64,000 nt of DNA. It comes from Desulfatiglandales bacterium (GTDB lineage: Bacteria; Desulfobacterota; DSM-4660; Desulfatiglandales; Desulfatiglandaceae). The stretch covers positions 3,584,001 to 3,648,000 of the forward strand of contig OY759599.1 in NCBI GenBank assembly GCA_963662465.1. The letters run 5' to 3'. Shown here in pieces: positions 1 through 22,171 of this stretch (positions within the stretch are counted from its first letter, which is position 1; every line of letters begins with the position of its first letter). Under the pieces are notes generated by a model, which was not told the DNA's origin, did no database searches, and saw only the letters and a list, made by a program, of their open reading frames with translations. The translations under genes were made by a program, and so were the position numbers.

Positions 1-92
1 TCTACTTGCAAGACTTATTATGCAGAACTACAAGTTGAAGGGCAAGTACGATTGTAACTATTTGATTTAACTGAAAAGTAAACCGGACAGCA

Positions 93-314
93 ATGAAGGC
101 AGATCTTTCAGGCCTGGATTTTCCTTTTGACAGACCGTATTTGAGTTTTTTCAACAGGTGTATGGTTGCTCTGCGAGCAATAGATGCATTTCTTCGCATT
201 CCTCCGAATGATAAGCATGTTGTGCGCATGATTCGTCGGCTTAGGAGGATCGCTTCGAAGGTTTCTTGTGAAGTGCCCTTTCGTCAAACTGTCAAACAGT
301 TGCACCGCCGTGCT
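93..314 (+). pseudogene. 5' part of a transposase-like gene interrupted by the IS21-family element
   Basis: Frame KADLSGLDFPFDRPY...QLHRRA continues in frame into 5047 (ALFDELRNQLRLAKE) once the element and one CCGTGCT copy are removed. Confidence 0.7.
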
Positions 315-9239: not shown

Positions 9240-9845
9240 ATGGCCAACCTTAACTTTAAAACCAAAGAGATGGAATGCAAAATCGTGTTCTATGGTCCCG
9301 GAAGGGGCGGAAAAACCACAAACCTGGAATATATTTTCAAAACCTACCGAAAACAAACCACCGGAGAAATGATTTCCATCAATACAAAGGGAGACCGTAC
9401 CCTCTTCTTTGATTTCCTCCCCCTGAAACTCGGGAAAATACGCGGGTACGACGTACGGGTGAAACTTTACACGGTTCCCGGACAAGTGCGGTATGATGCC
9501 ACCAGAAAAGTTGTTTTGAGAGGCGTTGATGGGTTGGTCTTTGTGGCCGATTCCATGCTTCTCAGGCGTGAACACAACATTTTATCTTTGCAGAACCTTC
9601 AAAAAAACCTTGGCGGATACGGCTTGAAAATTTCGCAAATCCCACTGGTTTTGCAATACAACAAAAGGGATCTGGCAAAAGACGGCATTCGCCTTTTGTC
9701 CGTTGAAACCCTGGAACAGGACCTGAACAGACAATTGAAAGTCCCCTCTTTTTCCGCCAGCGCCTTCAATGGTCAAGGCGTGGGCGCCACCCTGAAAGAG
9801 TGCCTGAAGCTAACCCTGGAATCCCTCCAAAACACACTGGCGTAG
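9240..9845 (+). CDS. mglA: MglA-like small GTPase
   Basis: KIVFYGPGRGGKTTN, RTLFFDFLPL, YTVPGQ, VFVADS, QYNKRD. Confidence 0.88.
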   Translation: MANLNFKTKEMECKIVFYGPGRGGKTTNLEYIFKTYRKQTTGEMISINTKGDRTLFFDFLPLKLGKIRGYDVRVKLYTVPGQVRYDATRKVVLRGVDGLVFVADSMLLRREHNILSLQNLQKNLGGYGLKISQIPLVLQYNKRDLAKDGIRLLSVETLEQDLNRQLKVPSFSASAFNGQGVGATLKECLKLTLESLQNTLA

Positions 9846-9860
9846 AGAGGAAACAATGGT

Positions 9861-11252
9861 TTGACCGAGCTGAATTTGTTTGATTTCATAATCATCGGAT
9901 TTTACCTGGCCATGGTACTCACCGTGGGACTGCGGGCGGGACGTCGCGTCGGAAGTTTTGAAGAATATGCGGTTGAGGGACGCTCCTATTCGTCGTTTGT
10001 GGTCTTCGCAACCCTGTCGGCTTCTTTCATCGGCGGTGGATTCACCATGGGCAACGCCGAGAAAGTCTTCATCCTGGGCGTTGTGAGCGTGGTGGCGCTC
10101 TGGGAATTCAGCCTCAAGGAAATTCTGGTGGCAAAACTCATCGCACCGCGGATCGGTGCATTTCCCAACGCCATTTCCGTAGGCGACATCATGGTCCGTG
10201 ATTACGGACGATTGGGGAAGATCATTACCGGCATCTTCTCGGTTCTTCTGTGCGCGGGGATTCTCGGCGCCCAGATCGGGGGCATGGGTTACATGTTCAA
10301 CCTCTTTTTGGGGCTTCCCGTCTGGGCCGGCATTCTCATCGGTATGGGCATCATCATCCTTTACGACACCATTGGGGGCATGCGGGCCATTGTGGCGACG
10401 GATGTCGTGCAGTTTGTGGTTCTGGCCATCGGTGTTCCCATTTGTCTGATCATGGGTATCCGCGCCGTGGGCGGCATCGATGCGATTATGACGGCAGCGC
10501 CGCCCGGTCATTTCCAACTGTTCGGTTCCATCACGCCCGTACAGTTTGTTTCCCTGTTCCTGACGTTTCTATTCGGTGAGACATTGGTGCCCCCCTACGT
10601 GCGTCGCCTGTTCATCAGCCGCGATACCCAACGGATCGTACGCGGCACCTTTTGGAGCGGGATTTTCTCCGTGCCTTTCTTCGCGGTTTCGAGCGGCATC
10701 GGTCTGGTGGCGCTGACCATGAATCCCGGCTTGAACCCCAACCTTTCGCTGCCATACATCATCCAGTCGGCGCTGCCCGTAGGGCTTCGAGGTCTCGTGA
10801 TCGCCGGCCTGATATCGGTGGTCATGTCCTCGGCCGATTCATTCCTCAACTCGGCATCCATTTCCCTCATCAACAACATCGTCAATCCGCTTCGGCGTAC
10901 GCCGCTAAGCGACCGTGAGGGTCTCCGCTGGGCACGCATCCGCCACCCTGCTGACCGGTTCCTTCGCAGTGGTTTTCGCACTCAGGATCCAAAGTTTGCC
11001 GGATATCCTGATCTATGCCTATAATTTTTGGGCCCCCATCATAATGGTCCCCCTGGCGGGGCACTTCTGGGGCTACGAGCCCCAAAAGCGGCGTTCATTG
11101 CCGGGGCCACCGCGGGAATTGCGGGCGTCGCCATATGGAACGGACTGCTGGGGTTTCCGGGCGGGTTCGACGGTCTGGTCGTCGGGGTTTTCACCAATGC
11201 CCTCGCCTTTACCTCGACATACCTGTTGCGGGGACGGATGAAGCGGGACTGA
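9861..11252 (+). pseudogene. Sodium:solute symporter with two apparent frameshifts
   Basis: SSF motifs (GGMRAIVATDVVQ, MSSADS); frame changes near 10940 and 11055. Confidence 0.75.
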
Positions 11253-11477: not shown

Positions 11478-11684
11478 GAAAAGTAGGCGTAGGGACTACT
11501 CGAACAGTAATTGGACGAGCGACACTCCGGAAAATACGTCGTATCAATGCTGGGATTCACCGCCCGCATCATAACACTTCTCTATCCCCGTATCCGGTAA
11601 TTTGTAATCCCCGGCCACCACGCCGCCCCACAGACCCGTCAACAGCACCAGGCAACACCCCATCTCCACCACAACCTTTTTCAT
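11478..11684 (-). pseudogene. Decayed third DGR target gene (DUF1566) with partial VR
   Basis: Same RBS and signal peptide as 21599-22171 (MKKVVV...LPDTG), an internal deletion of roughly 265 bp, then PSIDTTYFPECRSSNYCSSSPYAYF; truncated at 11478. Confidence 0.88.
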
Positions 11685-11726
11685 TGCGTACCTCCTGTTT
11701 CTCATTCTGCCTTCCATAGGTGCTAC

Positions 11727-11804
11727 TGTAGGTGCGGCTTTAGCCGCACAGCCAAACCCCCAAACGACCCCGATCCCCACTGTGCGGCTAAAGCCGCACC
11801 TACA
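11727..11804. repeat. GTAG-type REP doublet (REPIN-like)
   Basis: GTAGGTGCGGCTTTAGCCGCACA (11728-11750) and its exact reverse complement (11781-11803); each is internally palindromic. Confidence 0.85.
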
Positions 11805-11823
11805 ATCGCACTTGCTGCTTCCC

Positions 11824-12759
11824 CTATTGCGCCTCAGCCAACCGTTTCTCATCCGCCCATCGGCGCATCTCATCCAGGCTCTCCGCATCAAGAAACCGTT
11901 CCCCCAATTCCTCTATGGCGTCGGCATTCAAACCCTCGAACATGGGTTTGGCCATATCAGCGCCAACTCGAAAACGTTTAGCAATCAGCCGGCATAAAAG
12001 CGATATGCTCCCATCTTCTCTCCCAATTCTCTCGACACTCGTCACGTAAGGCATCTTTTTTCCCTCCTCATACTTTGACAATTCTTTCCAAAACAACCGT
12101 TCATGAGCTGCTGGAAGAGCCATCAGCCAATCAATGAACCGAAATAATTTGACGATATCCGCGCGGCTGTAACCGGCTGTATAGAGCTCTTTCACCAAAG
12201 CAAATTTGCGCTTGAAAAGTTCATCAGGGTCCTTCCCGCTTTCCAAAACCGACAAATGGGCGCGAACCACCACAACAAATGGATTCCCTTCTGCATCCGA
12301 CAAAAGCTCGGGCTTTGCCTGGTAATCCAGAAGCTTGACAACCGGGTAACGAAACCGCATTTCGCAGCCCCATAGGCTATAGGTGAACGCCTCGGGACGC
12401 CATTTCTTCGAATCATCCGCCAGAACCGCAAGGCTTACGACCCGCCGGTGGTACCGATCAAAAATCCGGTAATGGTAAACAAACATCCTTTCTTCAAAAT
12501 CCGTGTCCACCTGAGCCTGCACCTCGATATGCACCAGTATCCAGGCCTCCAGACCATCCAGAAGCCATATTTTCACCAGTTTATCCACAGTGCGCCTGCC
12601 CACCTCCGCATCGCGGGTAATCTGCCGAAGTTCCTTCTCCAGAAACGCATAGCCCCTTTCCCAATCGATCTGTTGGTGGGCCTCTGGGAAAAACAGCGAC
12701 ATGAACGGCTCGAAATAAACTTCCAGGATTTCTTTCCAGGGCGAATCAAAATCAGTCAT
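11824..12759 (-). CDS. Rpn-family PD-(D/E)xK protein, copy 1 (311 aa)
   Basis: DSPWKEIL, VDKLVK, ILVHIEVQ, ERMFVYHYRI; near-identical to the copies at 23097 and 24253. Confidence 0.85.
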   Translation of the reverse strand: MTDFDSPWKEILEVYFEPFMSLFFPEAHQQIDWERGYAFLEKELRQITRDAEVGRRTVDKLVKIWLLDGLEAWILVHIEVQAQVDTDFEERMFVYHYRIFDRYHRRVVSLAVLADDSKKWRPEAFTYSLWGCEMRFRYPVVKLLDYQAKPELLSDAEGNPFVVVVRAHLSVLESGKDPDELFKRKFALVKELYTAGYSRADIVKLFRFIDWLMALPAAHERLFWKELSKYEEGKKMPYVTSVERIGREDGSISLLCRLIAKRFRVGADMAKPMFEGLNADAIEELGERFLDAESLDEMRRWADEKRLAEAQ

Positions 12760-13232: not shown

Positions 13233-16200
13233 CTACTGACTCATCTTCACAACCGACCCTTCCCTGGCTTCCATCTTGCTCTTAACCACGATATCGCTCG
13301 ATTTAAAGGTGGCCCGCGCCCCGCTTTCAATCACCACATTGGGACCTACGGTAAGCGATGTCGTGCCCGTACAGGTGCAGTCGGTGCCAGTCTTGAAGGT
13401 CTCGTCATGGACCGTCGGGTTGGCGCCGGAGCAATCGGGGCAACCGGCGGTGGTGAGCGTCTTGAAGGAACGGTTTTCCCCGTAGGCAGTGCCTGCGCTG
13501 TTGGTGGCGTAGGCACGGACGTAGTAAGTGGTCTCCTCGCTCAGTCCTGTGATGGCACAGGTAAACGCACCCGTACCCGATCCCGATGGGACCGGATGGT
13601 CACTGACAGTGGGATCTGTTGACGTACTCCAGCAGACGCCTCTGGCCGTCACCTCCGGAGCCCCTTCTTCCGTTGAAACGGTGCCGCCCCCGGTGGCGCT
13701 GGTGGAAGCGATGTCCGTGGGGGCCTTGGTGGTCACAGTGGGAAGGCTCTCTCCAGCTTCTTTCAACAGTACGGTCGAGGTATTATTCTCCTTGCTGTAT
13801 TCGGGGGTTTCATCATTTGCATTGACCACCAGATAGATGCTGGTAGCAGCGGTCACATTCTCCACAAACAACTCCCCTTCCATAGATACGCCCACCGCCA
13901 GGGCTGAAATATCCACGGTTTTGAGGATCTCCCCATCGACGGTGTTTTTGCGAAACACCAGGTGGGTGGCGCCCGACGGCAGGACCCCGGTGTTTCGCAC
14001 CCCGGCCTTGACAGAAAACTCTGTATCGGACACCCGGGTTTTGGAAACGGAAACCAGGCCCAAATCCGGAAGGGTCATCACCCGGCTCGCCTTGTTGTTG
14101 GTCCGGTCCCCGTCTTCAAAGGTGTTATCGGGGTCCACGATCACGTACAGGGTCAAAGGGGATGCCGTGGCCGCGGGAACCGTCCAGGTCAATTGAACCT
14201 GTTCGCTTGCGCCCGGCTCCAGGGTCTGGGCCGTTTGCGTGCGACCGATCTCGGTACCGCCGGTCGCCGGATCTCCATTGTAGAAGGCCGCAGGAATACT
14301 GTTTTCAGGGATATCGCCGGCATTCACCACATTGACCGTAAGGAGTACCGAATTCCCGGGGGCAGGATTCCCCGGTGCCGCCAGGAAAGTGCCTGCACCC
14401 ACGCTCAGATCGCCGGTCATGGCATATTGGGCCATATACAGGTCCGTCTGGATGAGGACAGGCTGTTCGTAGGAAACGGTTGCGCCGTAAGCCGTCCGTC
14501 GGCTCATCTGTTCCACCTGCACCACGGTTCGGTCATAGACCACCATAAGGGTCTTTTCCGCGGAAAAGGCTGCGGTCATTTGCTGTTCCGTCTCCGGGTC
14601 ATTCGTTAACTGCCGAGGGGCTCCCCACATGTCAAAGAGCGGGTCGTAGAACACCGCAAACAGGTCCGAACTGAATTCCAACGGCTCGGCCCATACCAGG
14701 GCCATGCGGCCGTCGGGCGTGTGGGCCATGGAAAAATCCGCCAGATTGCTGGAATATTCGCCTTCCAGAATGGTGGTCACCGCGTTTGATTGAAAATTCT
14801 TCTCGCTTACCAGGTCGCCGCCCCGCAGCCAGGCCATAATGAAATCCCCGCTGGGATCGATGGCCAGTTTCGGGTTTTCATCGGGCACGCTGTCATTGGT
14901 CAACCGTTCGAGAGCGCCCCAGGCGCCGGAGGAATAGGTCATGGAAAACAATTCCCGATCATCCACGGTTTCCGGATCATTATCCGCATCCAGGCTCAGC
15001 ACCGCATACCCGGTTGTACCGTCGTAAGCCAGGTCGTATTTGATCATGCCGTAGGGAATTTCCCCTGCCTGCCGCGGGTCGGTCCAGGAAGTGCCATTCC
15101 AGCGGGACCACCACAAGGTGTTGGGGGCTTCGGCATCACCCCGAATATCGTTTGCCGTATTAGCGATCCATACCAAAAGCACATCATCGGATGTGGGACC
15201 TGACAGTCTCGGGCTTCGGTCCAGGTAGTTGTTTTGGGTCAATTTTGAAATGTCCGTCCAGCCGGCGCCGGCATCATAGCGGGCCACGGAGATCTCCAGG
15301 TATTTCACCATATCTTCAAACTGCGCGTCATCGGGCATGACCTGCCCCTCATTTTCCCAGGCCAGGAGGCTGTTGCCGTCTGAATAGGCTTCCAGATCGG
15401 AGTTGAAATCCGCCGTGCCGTCATCTGAAACCGCCGCATACTCGCTCCAGTTGGCGCCGTTCCAGGCTGAGGATACCAGGACGGTGCGGTTGAGGGCAGT
15501 GCGGGTCGGATCGTCATAGAGCCATGTGAGCCGGACATTTCCGGTGGCGGCCGAGAGACACGATTCCGAATAGGGAAAGACCTCTCGCTGTACCGAGGAA
15601 AGCCTGGCAGCTCCTGCCTGGCGCGTGATGATTCTGCCGGCTGTGAAATCGCCGTATTCGGTGCTTTCCAGGTAGTTTCGCGAGGTCCATCGGGGTGTAA
15701 CGGGGTTGTTTTGAACAGAAAACATCATACTGTCGGCATCGCCGCCGTACTCCCAGTCCCAGCGGAGCAGCTCGTTTTCCCAGCTCCACAAAAAAAGGTA
15801 AGCGCTGTACCCGCCGTTCAGGTATATGGTCAGATCGGCAAGGGTGGGCTCTTGAGGAAACTGAAGACCAAAGTCGGCGCCGCCCCCAATCCAGCCCTCC
15901 ACCGCAATGACCGAATCGGCCCCAACTCCAAGGGAACCCCTGGCGTATGGTGAAACGCCAAATATGCCATTGATTTTGAAGGGACTCAAATCCACAATCC
16001 CCAGAGACGCATCAACACTTGCATTCACTGAAGCCTTGCCGTACATGGGGATCAACACGGGACCTACCGCCACAACAAAAGGCCAGGATTCCTTGGCCTC
16101 TCCCGAGCCCTTAATAGTCAGATATCCTTCCCAGTCCCAGGCGCATGAAGAACTGAAGTATTCCGCCTCAGCATCGAGGGCCACCTTGAACTCGACTTTC

Positions 16201-17747
16201 TTGCCCATAATTTTGAACTCCGCCAGCTTGCCGGTCTCAAGAGATGCCTCGCAGGTTCCGTGGCTGTCCACCTTGGCGCTGATGCGAGGCAGCCATTCCA
16301 GTTTGAATGCCTTATCACCGAACAGAGGAATCTCTGCGGGAATCACGCCCACGTCAACACCTGCCTTAATTCCATCGCTGTTAAAACCCATTTCAGTTTG
16401 GTAGAAAAACCCATCGCCCAAATCCAGTCCTTTTAACATCACGGGAAAGGGCTTGCCCGCCACCACCAGAGGCGCTTGCTTTTCAGCGGAAACGGCCCCA
16501 TCCGAGGAAACGGCCTTCACCTTCAAGCCGTTGCAGTTCCCGAATTCAGAGCCCATATTGAAGGTTTTGGATGCGGTCGTTCCGCCGGTGGCCACTTCAT
16601 GGGTGGTTGTGGGGGTAATGAAAAGTACCTTCTGCGGTGTGTGTCCGCCCCAGTCCACATTGGCGGTGTAGGTGGCATTGTAGTCCACCCCGTCAAGGTA
16701 AACCACATCCCCGTCATAGCGGGAAGTGATGTCCGTCACCACGATGCCGCCCGAAGAAGCGGTTTGCAATCGAAAATCCTGACGGACGGTTGCGCCGGAA
16801 GGGAGATACACGGACTGCACCGTATCCGCATAACCGGATTTCTTGACAGTAACGGTGTGATCCCCCGACGAAAGGCCTTGAACCGTATACCGGCCACTGC
16901 CGTCGGTGGTGGTTGAAAACCCGGTGCCGCTGACGGTGGCGATGGAAAGGGCGCTGTTGTCGGATTTGTCGTACACATACCCTTCCAGGGTTGCCGTACC
17001 TCCGCCGGTGCTGGTAATTTCATAAGTGACTACATTGCTTTTCCCGCCCGTTCCGCCGTCAATGGCCCACCATTCATACTGCCCTGCCGGGCGATCCCAG
17101 GGCACGGTGTAGGAGATTTCAAACCGGCCGTAAGCATTCACCCCCACCTCCTGGGTGGGGAATTCGGAGCCATCCGGCTTTTGGAAATGCAAAACAGCAA
17201 CCGTATAAGGGGTGAACCCCATACCCCACTGGGTCAGAACACCGCTGGGAGATGCGGACAACGGGGATTGGCCGATCAAATAATCAAATGATCCAGATGG
17301 TCCGGCGCGCACACAACGAACATAGTAGTGGTTGGCCTTATTGTTGAAGTCCACGTAGCCGTAGTAGAAAAAGACGGACCACGCGTAGTACGAATAGTTG
17401 GCGTAGGGACTACTCGACCAGTAAACGGACGAGCGACACTCCGGAAAATACGTCGTATCGATGGCGGGATTATAACGGTCCCAGGCAACCAGCGTCTCCA
17501 GCTCCCGCACATTGGGCAGTCGCCAGTCCGAATGTCCGCCCGGGGAAAGGTTCTCGCAATAGTCCAGGGCTTCCTCCCAGGTGCGGGTCATCCCATCGTC
17601 GCTCTGCTGCCACATCAGGCCGGTCACGGAATCGGAAACCGTGCCGTTGCCGTTGTCGTTGAACGCGGCAAACACGGTTCCGCCGCTGTACAGCAGAATG
17701 CTTGCCAGCAAAACACACGCGCACGCCAAAGTTCTTTTTCTTCTCAT
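13233..17747 (-). CDS. Giant secreted multidomain protein with N-terminal DUF1566/Lcl domain; DGR target 2
   Basis: Signal peptide; DNGNGTVSDSVTGLMWQQ...WRLPNVREL...YVRCVR; then carboxypeptidase-regulatory/Ig-like, propeller-like, CARDB-like and FN3-like (YYVRAYATNSAGTAYG) regions and a Cys-rich tail. Confidence 0.9.
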   Translation of the reverse strand: MRRKRTLACACVLLASILLYSGGTVFAAFNDNGNGTVSDSVTGLMWQQSDDGMTRTWEEALDYCENLSPGGHSDWRLPNVRELETLVAWDRYNPAIDTTYFPECRSSVYWSSSPYANYSYYAWSVFFYYGYVDFNNKANHYYVRCVRAGPSGSFDYLIGQSPLSASPSGVLTQWGMGFTPYTVAVLHFQKPDGSEFPTQEVGVNAYGRFEISYTVPWDRPAGQYEWWAIDGGTGGKSNVVTYEITSTGGGTATLEGYVYDKSDNSALSIATVSGTGFSTTTDGSGRYTVQGLSSGDHTVTVKKSGYADTVQSVYLPSGATVRQDFRLQTASSGGIVVTDITSRYDGDVVYLDGVDYNATYTANVDWGGHTPQKVLFITPTTTHEVATGGTTASKTFNMGSEFGNCNGLKVKAVSSDGAVSAEKQAPLVVAGKPFPVMLKGLDLGDGFFYQTEMGFNSDGIKAGVDVGVIPAEIPLFGDKAFKLEWLPRISAKVDSHGTCEASLETGKLAEFKIMGKKVEFKVALDAEAEYFSSSCAWDWEGYLTIKGSGEAKESWPFVVAVGPVLIPMYGKASVNASVDASLGIVDLSPFKINGIFGVSPYARGSLGVGADSVIAVEGWIGGGADFGLQFPQEPTLADLTIYLNGGYSAYLFLWSWENELLRWDWEYGGDADSMMFSVQNNPVTPRWTSRNYLESTEYGDFTAGRIITRQAGAARLSSVQREVFPYSESCLSAATGNVRLTWLYDDPTRTALNRTVLVSSAWNGANWSEYAAVSDDGTADFNSDLEAYSDGNSLLAWENEGQVMPDDAQFEDMVKYLEISVARYDAGAGWTDISKLTQNNYLDRSPRLSGPTSDDVLLVWIANTANDIRGDAEAPNTLWWSRWNGTSWTDPRQAGEIPYGMIKYDLAYDGTTGYAVLSLDADNDPETVDDRELFSMTYSSGAWGALERLTNDSVPDENPKLAIDPSGDFIMAWLRGGDLVSEKNFQSNAVTTILEGEYSSNLADFSMAHTPDGRMALVWAEPLEFSSDLFAVFYDPLFDMWGAPRQLTNDPETEQQMTAAFSAEKTLMVVYDRTVVQVEQMSRRTAYGATVSYEQPVLIQTDLYMAQYAMTGDLSVGAGTFLAAPGNPAPGNSVLLTVNVVNAGDIPENSIPAAFYNGDPATGGTEIGRTQTAQTLEPGASEQVQLTWTVPAATASPLTLYVIVDPDNTFEDGDRTNNKASRVMTLPDLGLVSVSKTRVSDTEFSVKAGVRNTGVLPSGATHLVFRKNTVDGEILKTVDISALAVGVSMEGELFVENVTAATSIYLVVNANDETPEYSKENNTSTVLLKEAGESLPTVTTKAPTDIASTSATGGGTVSTEEGAPEVTARGVCWSTSTDPTVSDHPVPSGSGTGAFTCAITGLSEETTYYVRAYATNSAGTAYGENRSFKTLTTAGCPDCSGANPTVHDETFKTGTDCTCTGTTSLTVGPNVVIESGARATFKSSDIVVKSKMEAREGSVVKMSQ
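17299..17440 (-). repeat. DGR variable region VR of target 2
   Basis: 17336-17440 aligns without gaps to the TR with 16 mismatches, all at TR adenines. Confidence 0.97.
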
Positions 17748-17750
17748 CTT

Positions 17751-19071
17751 TCAAACCTCCCGGCAATTTTTCATCTGTTCCAATCCACAAATCATTTTCC
17801 CCCGAAAAAGCTTCACCAGCCTGCGATGCACCATCCCATCCAGCGTCTTTTCCGCTCGAATCAGGGCAACATGATACCCGGCATTCAAAGCCTTCATCAG
17901 AAAACGGCCCAGCCACCGCCGATGGAAGCCGCACCCATACCGAAATCCTCGAAGACCCAAAACCGGTTTGAGACCCAAAACATTCCGGGCCAGCCACGCC
18001 TGATAACCATAAAACTCATAAAAGAGGCCGACCGGGAAAAAAATCAGCGCTTTTGTTTCAAAACCTCCCCCGGTCCACAGCGGATAAAAATGCCCCCGGA
18101 CTCCGGGCGCGACCGCGCTTCCCTTTTCAGGCGCCCACCAGCGATAGGCAGCCCGGAAGGTCGCATTTTTTCCCGGCGGCGCATACCTCGGAATAAGCCG
18201 CCCGTCGTCCAGGATAAAAGCGGCCCTCAACACCGCATGTTTTTCAAAAAGCTTCAGTACAAGACCATGCGTATCCGCCCACGAAAAATGCCCGAGATAA
18301 GAGGCTGTCACGGCGCGCAAGGCGTCCATGGTCAAAACAGGGTACTGCCAGGCTCTGATTTCCCGCCCCCTGCCGCTTACAGGAACCGGCTCCGCCAAGC
18401 ATTTTTCAAAATTCGCCAGTTTCTCCTTAAAATGGTTCACCACCCGCCGCCGGGCCAGCACATAACGTCGGCGAACAATATAACCCAAAAAATCAATCCC
18501 CGATGAGACCGGACGGAGGCGGTCCTGCTGCACGTTGGGCCGAAGCAACAGTTCTTCCCTCAAAAACCCTTCAATGGTCTCCCGCCATCTCATCAGCTTT
18601 TGAGGGGACGGATCCAGCAGCAAAAAGTCATCGCAATACCGGATATAATACTTGCATTTCAGCCGATGTTTCACAAACTGATCCAGCTCATTCAAATACA
18701 CATTGGCAAAAAACTGCGAACTGAGGTTTCCGATGGGAAGCCCCTTGCCGGAAGGCACCTTAAAAAGAGTCTTGTGCGGCGGTATGCGCTCCAACAACCG
18801 TTCATTACCCTTGAACCGGTAATCCACGGTGCAATCGTGAAATATCATCACCTGCGTCAGCCACAGCGCATCCTCCCGTTTGATTTTCTTTTTGATGAGC
18901 CGGCAGAGAATCTCCTTGTCCACGTTCATGAAAAACCCGGCCACATCGGCCTTCAAATAGGAGATCCGTTGGGTTCCGTTTTTCGTGGCGCGGTTCAAAA
19001 ACTCCCGGAGCCGAGAAACGCGGCGTGGACGCCCTTCCCTTTCCGGCATGCATAGGAATCATAAATAAACA
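17751..19071 (-). pseudogene. DGR reverse transcriptase, N-terminally truncated, with C-terminal MutS-I-like domain
   Basis: LKADVAGFF, GLPIGNLSSQFFANVYL, YIRYCDD (18627-18638), GIDFLGY; begins abruptly at MFIYDSYACRKGKG with a 1-nt frameshift near 19020. Confidence 0.93.
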
Positions 19072-19080
19072 TCTTATTGT

Positions 19081-20878
19081 CAGCAATTCCCGCTTAGATT
19101 CTAAAGGCGCTAGGACAGTACCTTTTGGCATTTCCTTTTCGTAAAGCTTTACGTTGAATGAATAGCCTGAAAAGGCTTTTTTCTCCAATTTTTAAAATAA
19201 AACAGGAATTTTTTTGGCAATTCTCAGAAAAAGCTGGACTTTCAGATCAACTTGGCCGATGATTACTGCCTATGGGAATCAGAAGCCAAAAAGGAAGAAA
19301 AGAGAGAGGCAAGATTGGAGTTCGCAAGCATCTTAATGCAGATGCAATTTTCAAGCGTCTGCATAAAGATTTTTCTGAAGTCTCTGACTGCCGTGAGGAT
19401 CCCGATATTACTATTGCGGATGCCTTGATGTCCGGGTTTGCAATGTTTTCGCTCAAGGAGCCATCGTTGCTTGCCTTTGATGAAAGAAGAAAAACCGATA
19501 GTAATCTTGGGAACATATACCATATTGGAAAGATCCCATGTGACAGTACGATGCGCACCATTCTTGATGAAGTGCTCGCAGAAGAACTTCGGAAACCGTA
19601 TAGGAATATCTTCTGGGAACTGCAAAGGGGAAAGGTGCTTGAACGTATGGTATTTTTCGAAGGTTGTTATCTTCTATCTTTGGATGGAACGGGTTTCTTC
19701 TCATCGAAGAAACTTTCCTCTGATAGTTGTTTGGTAAAAGTATCGAAAAAAACCGGCGAAAAAACCTATTATCAGCAGATGTTGGGGGCAGCAATTGTCC
19801 ATCCGGATTTCAAAGAGGTCATTCCGCTTGCTCCGGAATTCATAGTCAAGCAGGATGGCCAAAGCAAGAACGACTGTGAGCGTAATGCCGCGAAACGTTT
19901 CTTGCAAAAGCTAAAAGAGGAGCATCCCCATCTGCCTATCATTATAACAGAGGACGCGTTAAGTTCGGATGCACCCCACATTGAAGAAATACAAAAGCAA
20001 AATTTTCATTATATTCTGGGAGTTAAAAAAGGAGATCACCATTTCTTGTTTAATCACGTCGAACAAGCGCGGATAAATGGTGACGTCACTGAATTCGAAT
20101 TGGTCGATAAAGAGGATCCGGAAAAAATACATCGTTTCCGATTTATTAACCAGGTACCTCTCAATGCCTCTAACAAGAATATGCTGGTTAACTTTCTGGA
20201 ATATTGGGAAATTACACCGAAAAAAACAAAACATTTTAGTTGGGTGACAGATTTTTTAATAGGAAAGGACAATGCATACCAGCTAATGCGAGGCGGCCGT
20301 GCGAGATGGAAGATCGAAAATGAAACCTTCAATACTCTTAAGAACCAAGGATATCATTTTGAACACAACTACGGGCTCGGCAAGAAGAATCTGAGTGTTG
20401 TTTTTGCGATGCTCATGATGCTGGCATTCTTGGTGGATCAAACTCAACAGCTTTGTTGCCCTCTATTTATAGCCGCATGGCATAAACTCGGCTCAAAAAG
20501 GGAATTGTGGGAACGGATGAGAGCTTTGTTTAGAGATTTTGAATTCAAATCGATGAGGATGCTCTATGAAGCCCTCTATTATGGCGTAAAGTTTCAAGCG
20601 CCAGTTATTCTATATAACAGTGGTTAAATTTGTCATGCCCAAGTTCGCATACAAAAATGCTCTCATTAATAAAAAACTGGAGATTCCGGAAATGGATATC
20701 TCTGCCCTAACTCGTGCTTTTATGCTCTTACTCTTGTCAAAGAAGCTCAACCTGCAAGAAATCGAGGGAGGTAATAGTGGATTTAATACAATTTTTCTGA
20801 AAAGGATCTGATCTCAGGGTTTGTTTTTGAAATATGTTTTTCAAACTCTGTGAGTAAATTCTTGACCGGGAATTGCTG
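19081..20878 (+). mobile_element. Insertion sequence (ISNCY-like), 1798 bp
   Basis: 12-bp perfect terminal IR CAGCAATTCCCG; 9-bp direct repeat TCTTATTGT at 19072-19080 and 20879-20887. Confidence 0.92.
19272..20627 (+). CDS. DDE transposase
   Basis: LSLDGTG, ITEDAL, GRARWKIENETFNTLKNQGY. Confidence 0.92.
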   Translation: MGIRSQKGRKERGKIGVRKHLNADAIFKRLHKDFSEVSDCREDPDITIADALMSGFAMFSLKEPSLLAFDERRKTDSNLGNIYHIGKIPCDSTMRTILDEVLAEELRKPYRNIFWELQRGKVLERMVFFEGCYLLSLDGTGFFSSKKLSSDSCLVKVSKKTGEKTYYQQMLGAAIVHPDFKEVIPLAPEFIVKQDGQSKNDCERNAAKRFLQKLKEEHPHLPIIITEDALSSDAPHIEEIQKQNFHYILGVKKGDHHFLFNHVEQARINGDVTEFELVDKEDPEKIHRFRFINQVPLNASNKNMLVNFLEYWEITPKKTKHFSWVTDFLIGKDNAYQLMRGGRARWKIENETFNTLKNQGYHFEHNYGLGKKNLSVVFAMLMMLAFLVDQTQQLCCPLFIAAWHKLGSKRELWERMRALFRDFEFKSMRMLYEALYYGVKFQAPVILYNSG

Positions 20879-20983
20879 TCTTATTGTTGTTGTTCACGTT
20901 GCCGTTGTTGAAATTGACGTTCCACGCGTTGTTCGAATTGTTGGCGTTGGGACTACTCGACCAGTAAACGGACGAGCGACATT
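20879..20983 (-). ncRNA. DGR template repeat (TR), 3'-truncated
   Basis: 105 nt with 14 AAC/AAT triplets; matches both VRs except at adenines; lies between avd and RT. Confidence 0.96.
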
Positions 20984-21151: not shown

Positions 21152-21544
21152 TTACCGCCGATTGTTCGAACGCTTTACAACCATGCTGCCGGGCTTATTT
21201 CCGCCCGCACTTTTTAACCACCCCTCATTTTGCCGAGACACATTGACCACCTTCTCGGCAAGCTGCAAAAATGTTTTCGGTTTATTGAATGCCTTCACCT
21301 CCCTGGCAATTACCAGGTGGATCTTAATCCTTTCCAGTAATACGCGTAATCTCAAAAGCGCCGGTGTTTTATCTACCAGCGAATTGGCTTCCATAATCAA
21401 GCCCAGCGCATCGTGACACATGCTTCTCAATTCGGTCCCGATGGTGTACTTGTGGTAGCGGGAAAAAAATTTGACCGTATTTTCCACCAGCACCGTCTCT
21501 TCCATCATGGCTTTGAATATGGGGAGATGATCGTAATTCGCCAT
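21152..21544 (-). CDS. avd: Avd-like four-helix-bundle accessory protein
   Basis: 130-aa basic helical protein (HLPIFK...KYTIGTELR...GWLK) immediately upstream of the TR. Confidence 0.85.
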   Translation of the reverse strand: MANYDHLPIFKAMMEETVLVENTVKFFSRYHKYTIGTELRSMCHDALGLIMEANSLVDKTPALLRLRVLLERIKIHLVIAREVKAFNKPKTFLQLAEKVVNVSRQNEGWLKSAGGNKPGSMVVKRSNNRR

Positions 21545-21598
21545 ATAACCCTTTAGCCCGAAACGCTTAAATAACCAAAGAAAAAAATAATCCAATAT

Positions 21599-22171
21599 TC
21601 AAGGTCCGGCGCGCACACAACGAACATAGTAGTGGCTGGCCTTACCGTAGCCGCCCACGCGGCCGTAGCTGAAATGGACGAGCCACGCGTAGTCCGAACC
21701 GTCGGCGAGGGGACTACTCGACCAGTAAACGGACGAGCGACATTCCGGAAAATACGTCGTATCAATGCTGGGATACACCCGCCCAAAATCCACAATAGAC
21801 ATTAGTTCCCGCCGATCCGGCAGGCGCCAGTCCGAGTACCCCCCCGATGGAAAGGTCAGGGCCGCACAATAATCAATGGCCTCCTGCCAGGTGCGGGTGG
21901 TTCCGTCATCGGCTTGCTGCCACATCAACCCGGTGTTCAGGTCGGTCACGGTCCCGTTCCCGTTGTCCCGGTAGGCGGGTTGGGGCCCGTCGTATTGCGC
22001 ATCCTGGCCGTAAAACGGCGCCCCGGACTGGGGACAGGGAATTTCTTTACCCGCATCGTAACATTTGTGAATGCCCGTATCGGGTAATTGGTAGTCCTCG
22101 GCCACCGCACCGCTCCACAGGCCCGCCAGCAACCCCAGCCAACACCCCATCGCCACCACAACCTTTTTCAT
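21599..22171 (-). CDS. Secreted DUF1566/Lcl protein; DGR target 1
   Basis: Signal peptide, LPDTG, YGQDAQY, DNGNGTVTDLNTGLMWQQ, WRLP, C-terminal YVRCVRAGP. Confidence 0.95.
   Translation of the reverse strand: MKKVVVAMGCWLGLLAGLWSGAVAEDYQLPDTGIHKCYDAGKEIPCPQSGAPFYGQDAQYDGPQPAYRDNGNGTVTDLNTGLMWQQADDGTTRTWQEAIDYCAALTFPSGGYSDWRLPDRRELMSIVDFGRVYPSIDTTYFPECRSSVYWSSSPLADGSDYAWLVHFSYGRVGGYGKASHYYVRCVRAGP
21603..21744 (-). repeat. DGR variable region VR of target 1
   Basis: 21640-21744 aligns without gaps to the TR with 22 mismatches, all at TR adenines. Confidence 0.97.

Follow-up and report, generated by a model that had tools for sequence, protein, structure and literature searches.

An inactive DGR locus in a Desulfatiglandales bacterium with a reverse transcriptase fused to a MutS domain I-like module, a possible mismatch decoy

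The window analyzed here, a stretch of 64,000 nucleotides from a Desulfatiglandales bacterium, contains a chromosomal diversity-generating retroelement (DGR) with the layout target - avd - TR - RT - target, in which the targets are DUF1566/Lcl_C proteins (features lie on the minus strand unless stated otherwise). Target gene 1 (13233..17747) encodes a protein of 1504 aa with a signal-peptide-like start and an N-terminal Lcl_C domain containing VR1 (17337..17438), beyond which Pfam recognizes CarboxypepD_reg, CARDB, and fn3-like domains. Target gene 2 (21599..22171) encodes a protein of 190 aa of the Lcl_C/DUF1566 type (Lcl_C 127.7 bits) with VR2 (21641..21742) at its C-terminus, and the remnant of a third target gene (11478..11891) has an N-terminus like that of target 2 and a piece of 79 nt that matches the 5′ portion of the VR region with 90% identity. 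The avd-like accessory gene (21152..21595) matches bAvd-like PF22296 with an E-value of 8.7e-7 and 29.8 bits, against a cut-off of 40, and it fits in position and size with the bAvd-like genes that are found upstream in 21 of the 24 loci that have an RT fused to a MutS_I domain and a testable upstream ORF. The TR remnant (20879..20981), which contains 33 A in 102 nt, has lost its 3′ end. Over 102 nt all differences between TR and VR fall at TR adenines, 14 of 14 for VR1 and 21 of 21 for VR2, and it is by TR/VR pairs that differ only at TR adenines that a DGR is recognized. The two VRs are a record of past DGR activity. The RT remnant (17751..19049) that adjoins the TR belongs to the DGR clade by its RVT_1 match and by the context of its relatives, as the nearest RT homologues are of the DGR type and are flanked by avd, TR-like Lcl_C fragments, and Lcl_C targets.

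The RT remnant is an ORF of 432 aa that has the RT motifs from the palm onward, a thumb, and a MutS_I-like tail, and the part beyond the thumb comprises its last 149 aa. The MutS domain I-like module in this tail (17802..18164, ORF residues ~296-416) was characterized by Pfam, a structure model, fold comparison, column counts, and comparison with the MutS of the host, and it consists of an N-terminal helix, an inserted loop, and a beta-alpha core with G341, F343, E345, G374, F375, and R409. Pfam assigns RVT_1 to residues 17-191 and MutS_I (PF01624) to residues 332-414, the latter with 28.4 bits when the whole ORF is searched and 31.1 bits (E 2.9e-7) when the last 149 aa are searched alone, where the curated cut-off is 20.6 bits. 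A whole-genome profile scan places the Pfam core at 17808..18056 with 31.2 bits, which is within the interval (17790..18060) for which a sequence-only reading had proposed a fused MutS domain I-like module with its Phe-X-Glu motif. According to Pfam genome scans the host genome has three MutS_I matches, one in a canonical MutS of 873 aa and two in RT tails. MutS domains II-V (connector, lever, clamp, and ABC ATPase) are absent from the ORF, in which Pfam finds RVT_1 and MutS_I only; a like scan of a true MutS (P0151) recovers the full set of five MutS domains.

The relationship of the module to MutS is clearest when profiles are used. The alignment of the family (64 sequences) against the N-terminus of the 873-aa host MutS gives a probability of 97.2% with hhalign (E 4.6e-11, 100 columns) and pairs the FYE of the module with the FYE of host MutS, and with BLASTP the two sequences match one another at an E-value of 7e-9. 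A phmmer search with the 149 aa against 1.84 billion representative proteins retrieves 53 relatives at E ≤ 0.001, with an identity of 75% between the MutS_I part and its closest homologue. A single-sequence phmmer search against PDB sequences reaches MSH6, with F343-Y-E345 paired with its FYE, only at an E-value of 0.13 that is level with those of unrelated acetyltransferases. Since such single-sequence searches are weak, profiles and fold are required to establish the module.

For the 149 aa AlphaFold2 gives a model with a pLDDT of 84.1 and a pTM of 0.80, in which each 10-residue block from residue 51 to 130 averages at least 92. With Foldseek the model has 49 matches in the PDB at E ≤ 0.001 (best E 2.2e-5), and among those listed all are MutS/MSH chains, with E38 mutants named in PDB titles. 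When compared by VIA-align with 48,161 chains, the top four are again MutS/MSH (Z 11.4, 11.2, 10.2, and 9.8, with 96-101 residues aligned at an rmsd of 2.1-3.3) and the following match has a Z of 5.5, the XPB damage-recognition and UvsW N-terminal domains being distant fold relatives (Z 4.6-5.5). The model superposes over the range 13..136 on residues 14..117 of Taq MutS. Phe-X-Glu is the mismatch-contact motif of MutS, and both the G-x-(F/Y)-x-E motif and the G-F-P turn are retained in the module. Among 64 aligned relatives, fused and short, G341, E345, and G374 are present in every sequence (64/64 each) and F375 and R409 in 61 each, while position 343 is F in 58 and Y in six and hence aromatic in all 64. 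The C-terminal module is therefore confirmed as a genuine homologue of MutS domain I with a Phe-X-Glu motif, and in both respects the original proposal holds, by the Pfam score, by the profile alignment, and by the predicted fold. The domain is also strongly basic, with a pI of 10.5 ± 0.7 (n = 64). In the model of a full-length homologue, P0007 (pLDDT 90.4, pTM 0.83), the blocks over residues 401-430 average a pLDDT of 50-62, and the RT thumb and the module are accordingly predicted to be joined by a poorly ordered linker of ~25-30 residues. A role in binding or shielding a heteroduplex, as the sequence-only reading envisaged, would fit with this pattern of conservation.

The fusion is a family-wide feature. 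Among the 119 best homologues in the database, from which the window's own entry is excluded, 91 have PF01624 as a precomputed Pfam domain, and in a set of 79 genome loci that spans many phyla 28 have MutS_I in the RT ORF, two (L039 and L045) have it in a separate MSL ORF of 112-139 aa upstream of avd in the order MSL-avd-RT, and 49 have none. The same genome has a second RT-MutS_I gene that is full-length (577 aa), and with these three lines of evidence a sequencing or assembly artefact is ruled out as the origin of the fusion. The flanks of the loci were scanned over 5 kb with an MSL HMM built mainly from fused domains, so that distant free MSL genes may be missed in the 49 loci scored as having none; in Pfam scans of the genomes of these loci, G024 alone has an additional short MutS_I frame (188 aa). 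Fused RTs cluster on the RT-core tree, where the state changes nine times compared to 23.6 times when the labels are shuffled, and the RTs of the two split loci are sisters nested among fused RTs. On this tree, fused and free forms interconvert within one RT lineage. Also nested among the fused RTs is a clade without the module (L038, L048, L051, L058, L059, and L062) whose hosts have MutS, which means that the module is dispensable in MutS-positive hosts.

The copy in the window has decayed. Its RVT_1 match covers profile positions 56-204 only, full-length homologues are 490-560 aa long, and ~100 N-terminal alignment positions are missing from the window RT, with the in-frame match to homologue P0002 beginning at P0002 residue 103. 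An RT-homologous stretch in a frame other than that of the ORF (19019..19078) matches P0002 residues 92-110 (14 of 19 identical, E 1e-9); a one-base frameshift lies at about 19020, and the first ~10 codons of the ORF are not in the RT frame. About 91 N-terminal RT codons are lost (homologue residues 1-91 are absent), and the TR is short at its 3′ end by about 40 nt that both VRs keep. Between the TR and RT remnants is an IS element of 1798 bp (19081..20878, plus strand) with terminal inverted repeats CAGCAATTCCC and a DDE transposase ORF (19272..20627, plus strand) that scores 22.9 bits with DDE_Tnp_1, slightly below the cut-off of 23. The genome has 11 copies of this IS, including that in the window, with 100% identity and common boundaries. 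The window copy is flanked by a 9-bp target-site duplication (left, 19072..19080, TCTTATTGT on the plus strand; right, 20879..20887), and 9-bp duplications also flank three other copies (L012-L014). The IS inserted at the deletion junction is a recently active element. The idea that the N-terminus of the RT lies beyond the IS was ruled out by the clean IS ends and the 9-bp duplication and because the far side is the TR itself, and for the same reasons the loss of the RT N-terminus is older than the IS insertion. An older deletion took roughly the first 91 RT codons together with the 3′ end of the TR, a frameshift of one base follows, and the IS was then inserted at the junction. An active element has an intact RT and a complete TR, and the window has neither. 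The RT-MutS_I copy in the window is by its sequence an inactive, dead gene with no functional consequence of its own, and a direct assay in this window is impossible because the gene cannot make an active RT. This decayed state was underplayed in the sequence-only reading.

We propose that in intact members of this family the module is of importance after the cDNA has been made. Copying of the TR RNA by the RT would place random bases opposite adenines, the resulting cDNA would pair with the VR to give a heteroduplex that is dense in mismatches, and the tethered MutS_I-like domain would bind these mismatches through its Phe/Glu motif. As the module cannot signal to MutL, it could serve as a decoy that bars host MutS from restoring the parental VR. 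That a tethered mismatch binder of this kind keeps host MutS off the mutagenized VR heteroduplex is a reading that we advance tentatively, as plausible but short of probable. With somewhat more confidence, and on balance in its favor, we put forward the overall explanation of a DGR RT lineage with a MutS_I module, a mismatch decoy role for that module, and an inactive local copy. More doubtful is the general form of the proposal, in which the MutS-like module, fused or free, would be an anti-repair decoy on cDNA/VR mismatches that is kept only together with canonical MutS and is shed in hosts that lack MutS, such as many CPR bacteria.

The distribution of host MutS bears on this proposal. A canonical MutS is present in the hosts of 30 of 31 MSL-bearing DGRs versus 27 of 46 MSL-less relatives (Fisher p 1.3e-4, kinship ignored), but phylogenetically independent contrasts of MSL and host MutS on well-supported branches come to two pairs only, with which a sign test has no power, and the raw Fisher p is no ground for concluding that the two have co-evolved. 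The genomes that lack MutS are mostly small MAGs, from CPR or Omnitrophota, that may be incomplete. In a Bacteroides DGR, VR mutagenesis rose about 5- to 10-fold when host mutS was deleted, as reported in a recent preprint (bioRxiv 10.1101/2024.11.15.621889). In a reconstituted E. coli DGR, mutS deletion is described as without effect on one reporter, the 18-nt insertion of which is, as pointed out by the authors, no MutS substrate (PMC12875486). No functional experiments on MSL or on the fused domain were found in the literature searched, although the supplements of preprints may hold data on Msl mutants.

A different role, which we consider rather unlikely, is that the domain acts during cDNA synthesis. 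It would then hold on to the growing RNA:cDNA hybrid where bases have been misincorporated opposite template adenines and would stabilize mispaired primer ends, allowing the RT to continue beyond them or to remain template-bound. The RNA:cDNA hybrid is where mismatches first arise in a DGR cycle, the link to the RT is covalent and by way of a short flexible linker in the P0007 model, and the domain with its invariant mismatch-contact motif is very basic (n = 64). MutS domain I, however, reads DNA:DNA mismatches, and nothing on its use of RNA:DNA hybrids was found in the literature searched. Many DGR RTs, including that of Bordetella, mutagenize adenines with no such module, as would those of the 49 of 79 loci that lack it. 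Moreover, the module is separate in other DGRs, both in the two split loci described above and in the 16 MSL genes given in PMC5758913, and hence tight coupling to the polymerase is not required. Reuse of the fold as a general binder of nucleic acid or protein (TR RNA, cDNA, or Avd) with no mismatch specificity is distinctly unlikely. The pI of 10.5, a fold family that includes the XPB and UvsW domains, and the constant company of avd, both in PMC5758913 and upstream in 21 of 24 fused loci, are what such a binder would predict, but it is hard to explain a Glu in 64/64 and an aromatic residue in 64/64 without a MutS-like contact, and the similarity to MutS far exceeds that to the other fold relatives (Z about 10-11 vs 5.5).

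It is highly improbable that the domain recruits or redirects host mismatch repair in order that the cDNA strand is copied into the VR, as the module has neither the connector nor the ATPase domain, which are the parts of MutS that contact MutL. The near restriction of MSL-bearing elements to hosts with MutS (30/31) would be expected of such recruitment, and a possible involvement of MMR was speculated upon by Wu et al. (PMC5758913), but host MutS lowered DGR output in Bacteroides, as reported in the preprint (bioRxiv 10.1101/2024.11.15.621889). Finally, it is barely credible that the truncated ORF is still expressed, starting from a fortuitous ATG (19049), and yields a free MutS-like protein that could serve, for instance, the second DGR of the genome (C1:404393-405985), in spite of the open 432-codon frame and the 75% identity of its MutS_I part to the closest homologue. 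The second RT already has its own fused MutS_I domain, recent decay would leave a frame open (the copies of the IS show 100% identity), and the ATG is in the frame created by the frameshift.

Of the steps of the DGR cycle, the least understood is how the mutagenized cDNA persists in the target gene, and the putative mismatch-binding module found in so many DGRs, whether fused or free, is the obvious candidate for a counter-measure to host MutS. To this the present window adds that the mismatch-contact residues are essentially invariant and that the carriers are almost always MutS-positive hosts. If the decoy reading is true, the module would be a natural and portable inhibitor of mismatch repair that could replace dominant-negative MutL in engineered DGR or retron editing.

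The module can be compared with several known systems. With domain I of the MutS/MSH proteins (E. coli MutS 1e3m, Taq MutS 1fw6, and human MSH6 2o8b) it has a common fold (Z 9.8-11.4), the G-x-F-Y-E motif, and the G-(I/F)-P turn, but it lacks domains II-V and the ATPase, has a loop of ~25 residues inserted after the first helix, and is about 20-29% identical to MutS. The DGR of Bordetella phage BPP-1 (mtd-avd-TR-brt) has in common with the window the adenine-specific transfer from TR to VR and the avd and RT core parts; its target has a C-type lectin fold, of a class related to the DUF1566/Lcl_C fold of the window. Neither a MutS-like extension of brt nor an MSL is known from BPP-1.

The RT-MutS_I fusion is not new. 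It was first reported in 2018 by Wu et al. (NAR 46:11; PMC5758913), who list in Supplementary Table S1 three DGR RTs that bear a MutS_I motif at the C-terminus, from Ca. Magnetobacterium bavaricum (FP929063.1), an uncultured Desulfobacterium sp. (FR695874.1), and a bioreactor metagenome (AMWB01060384.1). Present in 91 of the 119 nearest homologues and in 28 of the 79 loci, which are counted at species level, the fusion is far commoner than these three cases. Like that of the window, the published RTs extend at the C-terminus by as much as about 150 aa and have MutS_I in the extension, all three have DUF1566 (Lcl_C) targets of VR class CLec2, where the window likewise has DUF1566 targets, and two of the three have the TG-AVD-TR-RT-TG layout of the window. 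To judge from architecture and taxonomy only, the window RT would be kin to these three. The window copy, unlike them, is a pseudogene, with an N-terminal deletion, a frameshift, an IS, and a truncated TR.

The closest parallel to the tail itself is provided by the MSL (MutS-like) accessory proteins, which form Architecture D of Wu et al. with 16 MSL genes in that survey (PMC5758913), and Msl is also present in Bacteroides DGRs according to the preprint (bioRxiv 10.1101/2024.11.15.621889). Like the window RT, the MSL proteins described there contain the MutS domain I module and always occur together with avd. They are free-standing in those elements, whereas in the window the module is fused to the RT thumb and so is part of the RT ORF rather than a free-standing ORF of 112-283 aa, by which an MSL accessory gene is defined. 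Whole MSL proteins are reported to have a near-neutral pI of 7.2 (PMC5758913), in contrast to the strongly basic fused domain and its short relatives (10.5). The tail of the window RT is the module that other DGRs encode as a free-standing MSL accessory protein.

The RT ORF at 17751..19049 (minus strand, 432 aa) continues for 149 aa downstream of the thumb, and the residues that the sequence-only reading had likened to MutS domain I are indeed found in this tail. The Pfam MutS_I profile (PF01624) matches residues 332-414 with 28.4 bits (31.1 bits for the tail alone; cut-off 20.6), and a Pfam scan of the RT ORF gave no MutS domain beyond MutS_I. In the whole 8.16-Mb genome the same family has exactly three matches, which are the 873-aa canonical MutS, the window tail (17808..18056) and the tail of the RT of a second DGR. 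Single-sequence comparison of the tail with PDB sequences is weak (E 0.13), a pairwise BLASTP against the host MutS gives E 7e-9, and an alignment that combines the tail with its relatives (64 sequences) matches the N-terminus of the host MutS by hhalign with a probability of 97.2% (E 4.6e-11), with the G-x-F-Y-E segments of the two superposed. The AlphaFold2 model of the tail (pLDDT 84.1, each 10-residue block from 51 to 130 averaging at least 92) also resembles MutS and MSH proteins, which account for all of the chains listed among the 49 that Foldseek finds in the PDB at E <= 0.001. When 48,161 chains were scanned independently of Foldseek, MutSbeta, Taq MutS and two MutSalpha entries took the top ranks (Z 11.4 to 9.8), the next fold having a Z of 5.5. 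The assignment of the tail as MutS domain I is sound. The nearest folds after MutS/MSH are the N-terminal domains of the archaeal XPB and phage T4 UvsW helicases (Z 4.6-5.5; ranks 5, 6 and 8), a likeness that represents distant fold kinship among domains sensing DNA lesions or structure.

The Phe-X-Glu motif attributed to the tail is conserved, as the Glu is present in 64/64 aligned relatives and the Phe position is aromatic in all of them (F in 58, Y in 6). The same alignment shows no substitution of G341 or G374, F375 and R409 persist in 61/64 sequences each, and the domain has a mean pI of 10.5. In the model of P0007, a full-length homologue with 58% identity to the window ORF (pLDDT 90.4, pTM 0.83), pLDDT falls to block averages of 50-62 over residues 401-430, which connect the thumb to the MutS-like core, and we read this segment as a probable flexible tether.

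The fusion is real and widespread, and a sequencing artefact can be dismissed. PF01624 is present in 92 of the best 120 matches to the ORF in a collection of 5.8 billion proteins, or 91/119 without the window's own entry, and absent in 28; full-length members of the RT family span 490-560 aa. With one genome searched per species, 576 relatives were found, and a module HMM run against the six-frame ORFs of the best 79 loci (E <= 1e-3) located the module in the RT ORF in 28, in a separate small ORF in 2 and nowhere in 49. Fused RTs occur in Thermodesulfobacteriota, Nitrospirota, Nitrospinota, Pseudomonadota, Bacillota, Deferribacterota, Planctomycetota, Myxococcota, Elusimicrobiota, Spirochaetota, Chloroflexota and Binatota. 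On an RT-core tree (79 rows; MutS-like columns excluded, the short rows L049 and L063 dropped) the fused state changes 9 times, compared with 23.6 times when labels are shuffled, and well-supported branches force at least two changes. The two loci with a separate MutS-like (MSL) ORF, L039 and L045 (order MSL-avd-RT), form a sister pair surrounded by fused loci, and hence the fused and free forms are one module that was joined or split within the lineage. Of the 24 fused loci with a testable ORF upstream of the RT, 21 have a bAvd-like gene there and three (L018, L026 and L076) do not; four other loci lack such an ORF. One Desulfobacteraceae genome carries two RT-MutS_I genes within 5 kb (L019 4881..6161 and 9256..10731), and it has five MutS_I matches genome-wide, with a TGA inside three.

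The window element is a genuine DGR that was active in the past. On the minus strand, from high to low coordinates, it comprises target gene 2 (21599..22171; Lcl_C/DUF1566, 127.7 bits), an avd-like gene (21152..21595; bAvd-like, E 8.7e-7, with a score under Pfam's cut-off), an adenine-rich TR remnant (about 20879..20981), an IS element (19081..20878), the RT ORF and target gene 1 (13233..17747; 1504 aa, with an Lcl_C domain at the N-terminus). A 102-nt comparison of the TR with the two VRs gives 14 differences for VR1 (17337..17438) and 21 for VR2 (21641..21742), and 35/35 of these are at TR adenines. The usual place of a VR is the C-terminal end, to which target 2 conforms. The variable Lcl_C domain of target gene 1 (residues 35-147) forms the N-terminal part of a surface-type protein that also contains CarboxypepD_reg, CARDB and fn3-like domains.

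The window copy of the RT-MutS_I gene is, to judge from its sequence, decayed and dead. Aligned with its homologues, the ORF is missing the initial ~100 positions, and its in-frame match to the closest of these, P0002, begins at residue 103. Just upstream, a stretch in another frame matches P0002 residues 92-110 (14/19 identical), which indicates a one-base frameshift near 19020, and the ATG of the ORF is a by-product of that frameshift. RT homology ends with this stretch at P0002 residue 92, and the adjoining base is already part of the 1798-bp IS, which encodes a 451-aa DDE transposase and has perfect terminal inverted repeats (CAGCAATTCCC) and a 9-bp target duplication. The TR lies on the far side of the IS and ends about 40 nt short of the common end of both VRs. 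The intact 9-bp duplication shows that the truncated TR was already joined to RT codon ~92 when the IS inserted. The loss of the TR 3' end, the spacer and about 91 RT codons, finger motifs among them, is therefore due to an older deletion. The IS appears to have been recently active: the genome has 11 copies that are 100% identical, counting that in the window, and about five more that are diverged or partial (84-86% identity), and 9-bp duplications are also present at the three other copies checked. A third target gene (11478..11891, minus strand) is likewise a remnant, with an N-terminus like that of target 2 and a 79-nt piece that matches the beginning of the VR region at 90% identity, everything else having been deleted; a 311-aa ORF (11824..12759, minus strand) lies between it and target 1.

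The second DGR of the genome (L001; C1:402893-407182) has the order Lcl_C target, avd, TR and a 577-aa RT-MutS_I in which an Ala/Gly-rich insertion separates the thumb region from the MutS-like tail. Its avd gene (L001 620..1000) has an in-frame TAG past codon 97, and homology to the window's Avd runs about 35 codons past this stop; this DGR may also be impaired.

We tentatively favor, at somewhat less than even confidence, a role for the module as a decoy that keeps MutS off the cDNA/VR heteroduplex, where it would bind mismatches arising from adenine mutagenesis. What the analysis itself shows is a MutS domain I fold, a conserved mismatch-contact motif, a strongly basic surface, the absence of signalling domains, an RT tether and a MutS-positive host. 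In a 2024 preprint (10.1101/2024.11.15.621889), which notes Msl in three Bacteroides DGRs, deletion of host mutS is reported to raise VR mutagenesis about 5- to 10-fold in an all-or-nothing pattern. The rival readings are that the module acts at the RNA:cDNA stage, that it is a non-specific binder, or that it recruits repair. The decoy reading predicts canonical MutS in carrier genomes, and with 130 bits or more against PF01624 as the criterion it is present in 30/31 genomes with the module, the exception being the 2.8-Mb MAG of L023, versus 27/46 without it (Fisher p 1.3e-4, with kinship ignored; a few clades carry the pattern, chiefly small MAGs of CPR and Omnitrophota whose completeness is unknown). 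Canonical matches scored 131.8-168.1 bits and others at most 55.6, except for 76.7 bits in a 1841-aa frame of the genome G071; the count leaves out L075 (from the genome already represented by L074), the second copy in the window's own genome, and the ambiguous L064 and L073. One MutS-positive clade is without the module (L038, L048, L051, L058, L059 and L062), and supported branches offer only two independent contrasts, so that a kinship-independent test has no power. The pattern fits the decoy reading.

No functional test of either MSL or the fused domain turned up in full-text literature searches. In E. coli DGR reconstitutions, mismatch repair was removed or suppressed for practical reasons (PMC12875486; 10.64898/2026.07.21.739853), and in the first of these mutS had no effect on a reporter that, according to the authors, is no MutS substrate. 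A 2021 review does no more than list MSL (PMC8632793). The observation of an RT-MutS fusion was correct, and genes of this kind were described in 2018, the window gene being another, decayed member. Wu et al. (2018; PMC5758913) put the share of DGR RTs with a C-terminal extension (up to ~150 aa) at about 20%, note weak identity to MutS_I in three related ones, and define the free MSL accessory gene, found in 16/372 DGRs and always alongside avd. All three MutS_I RTs named in their Supplementary Table S1 have DUF1566 targets, and two of the three share with the window DGR the layout TG-AVD-TR-RT-TG.
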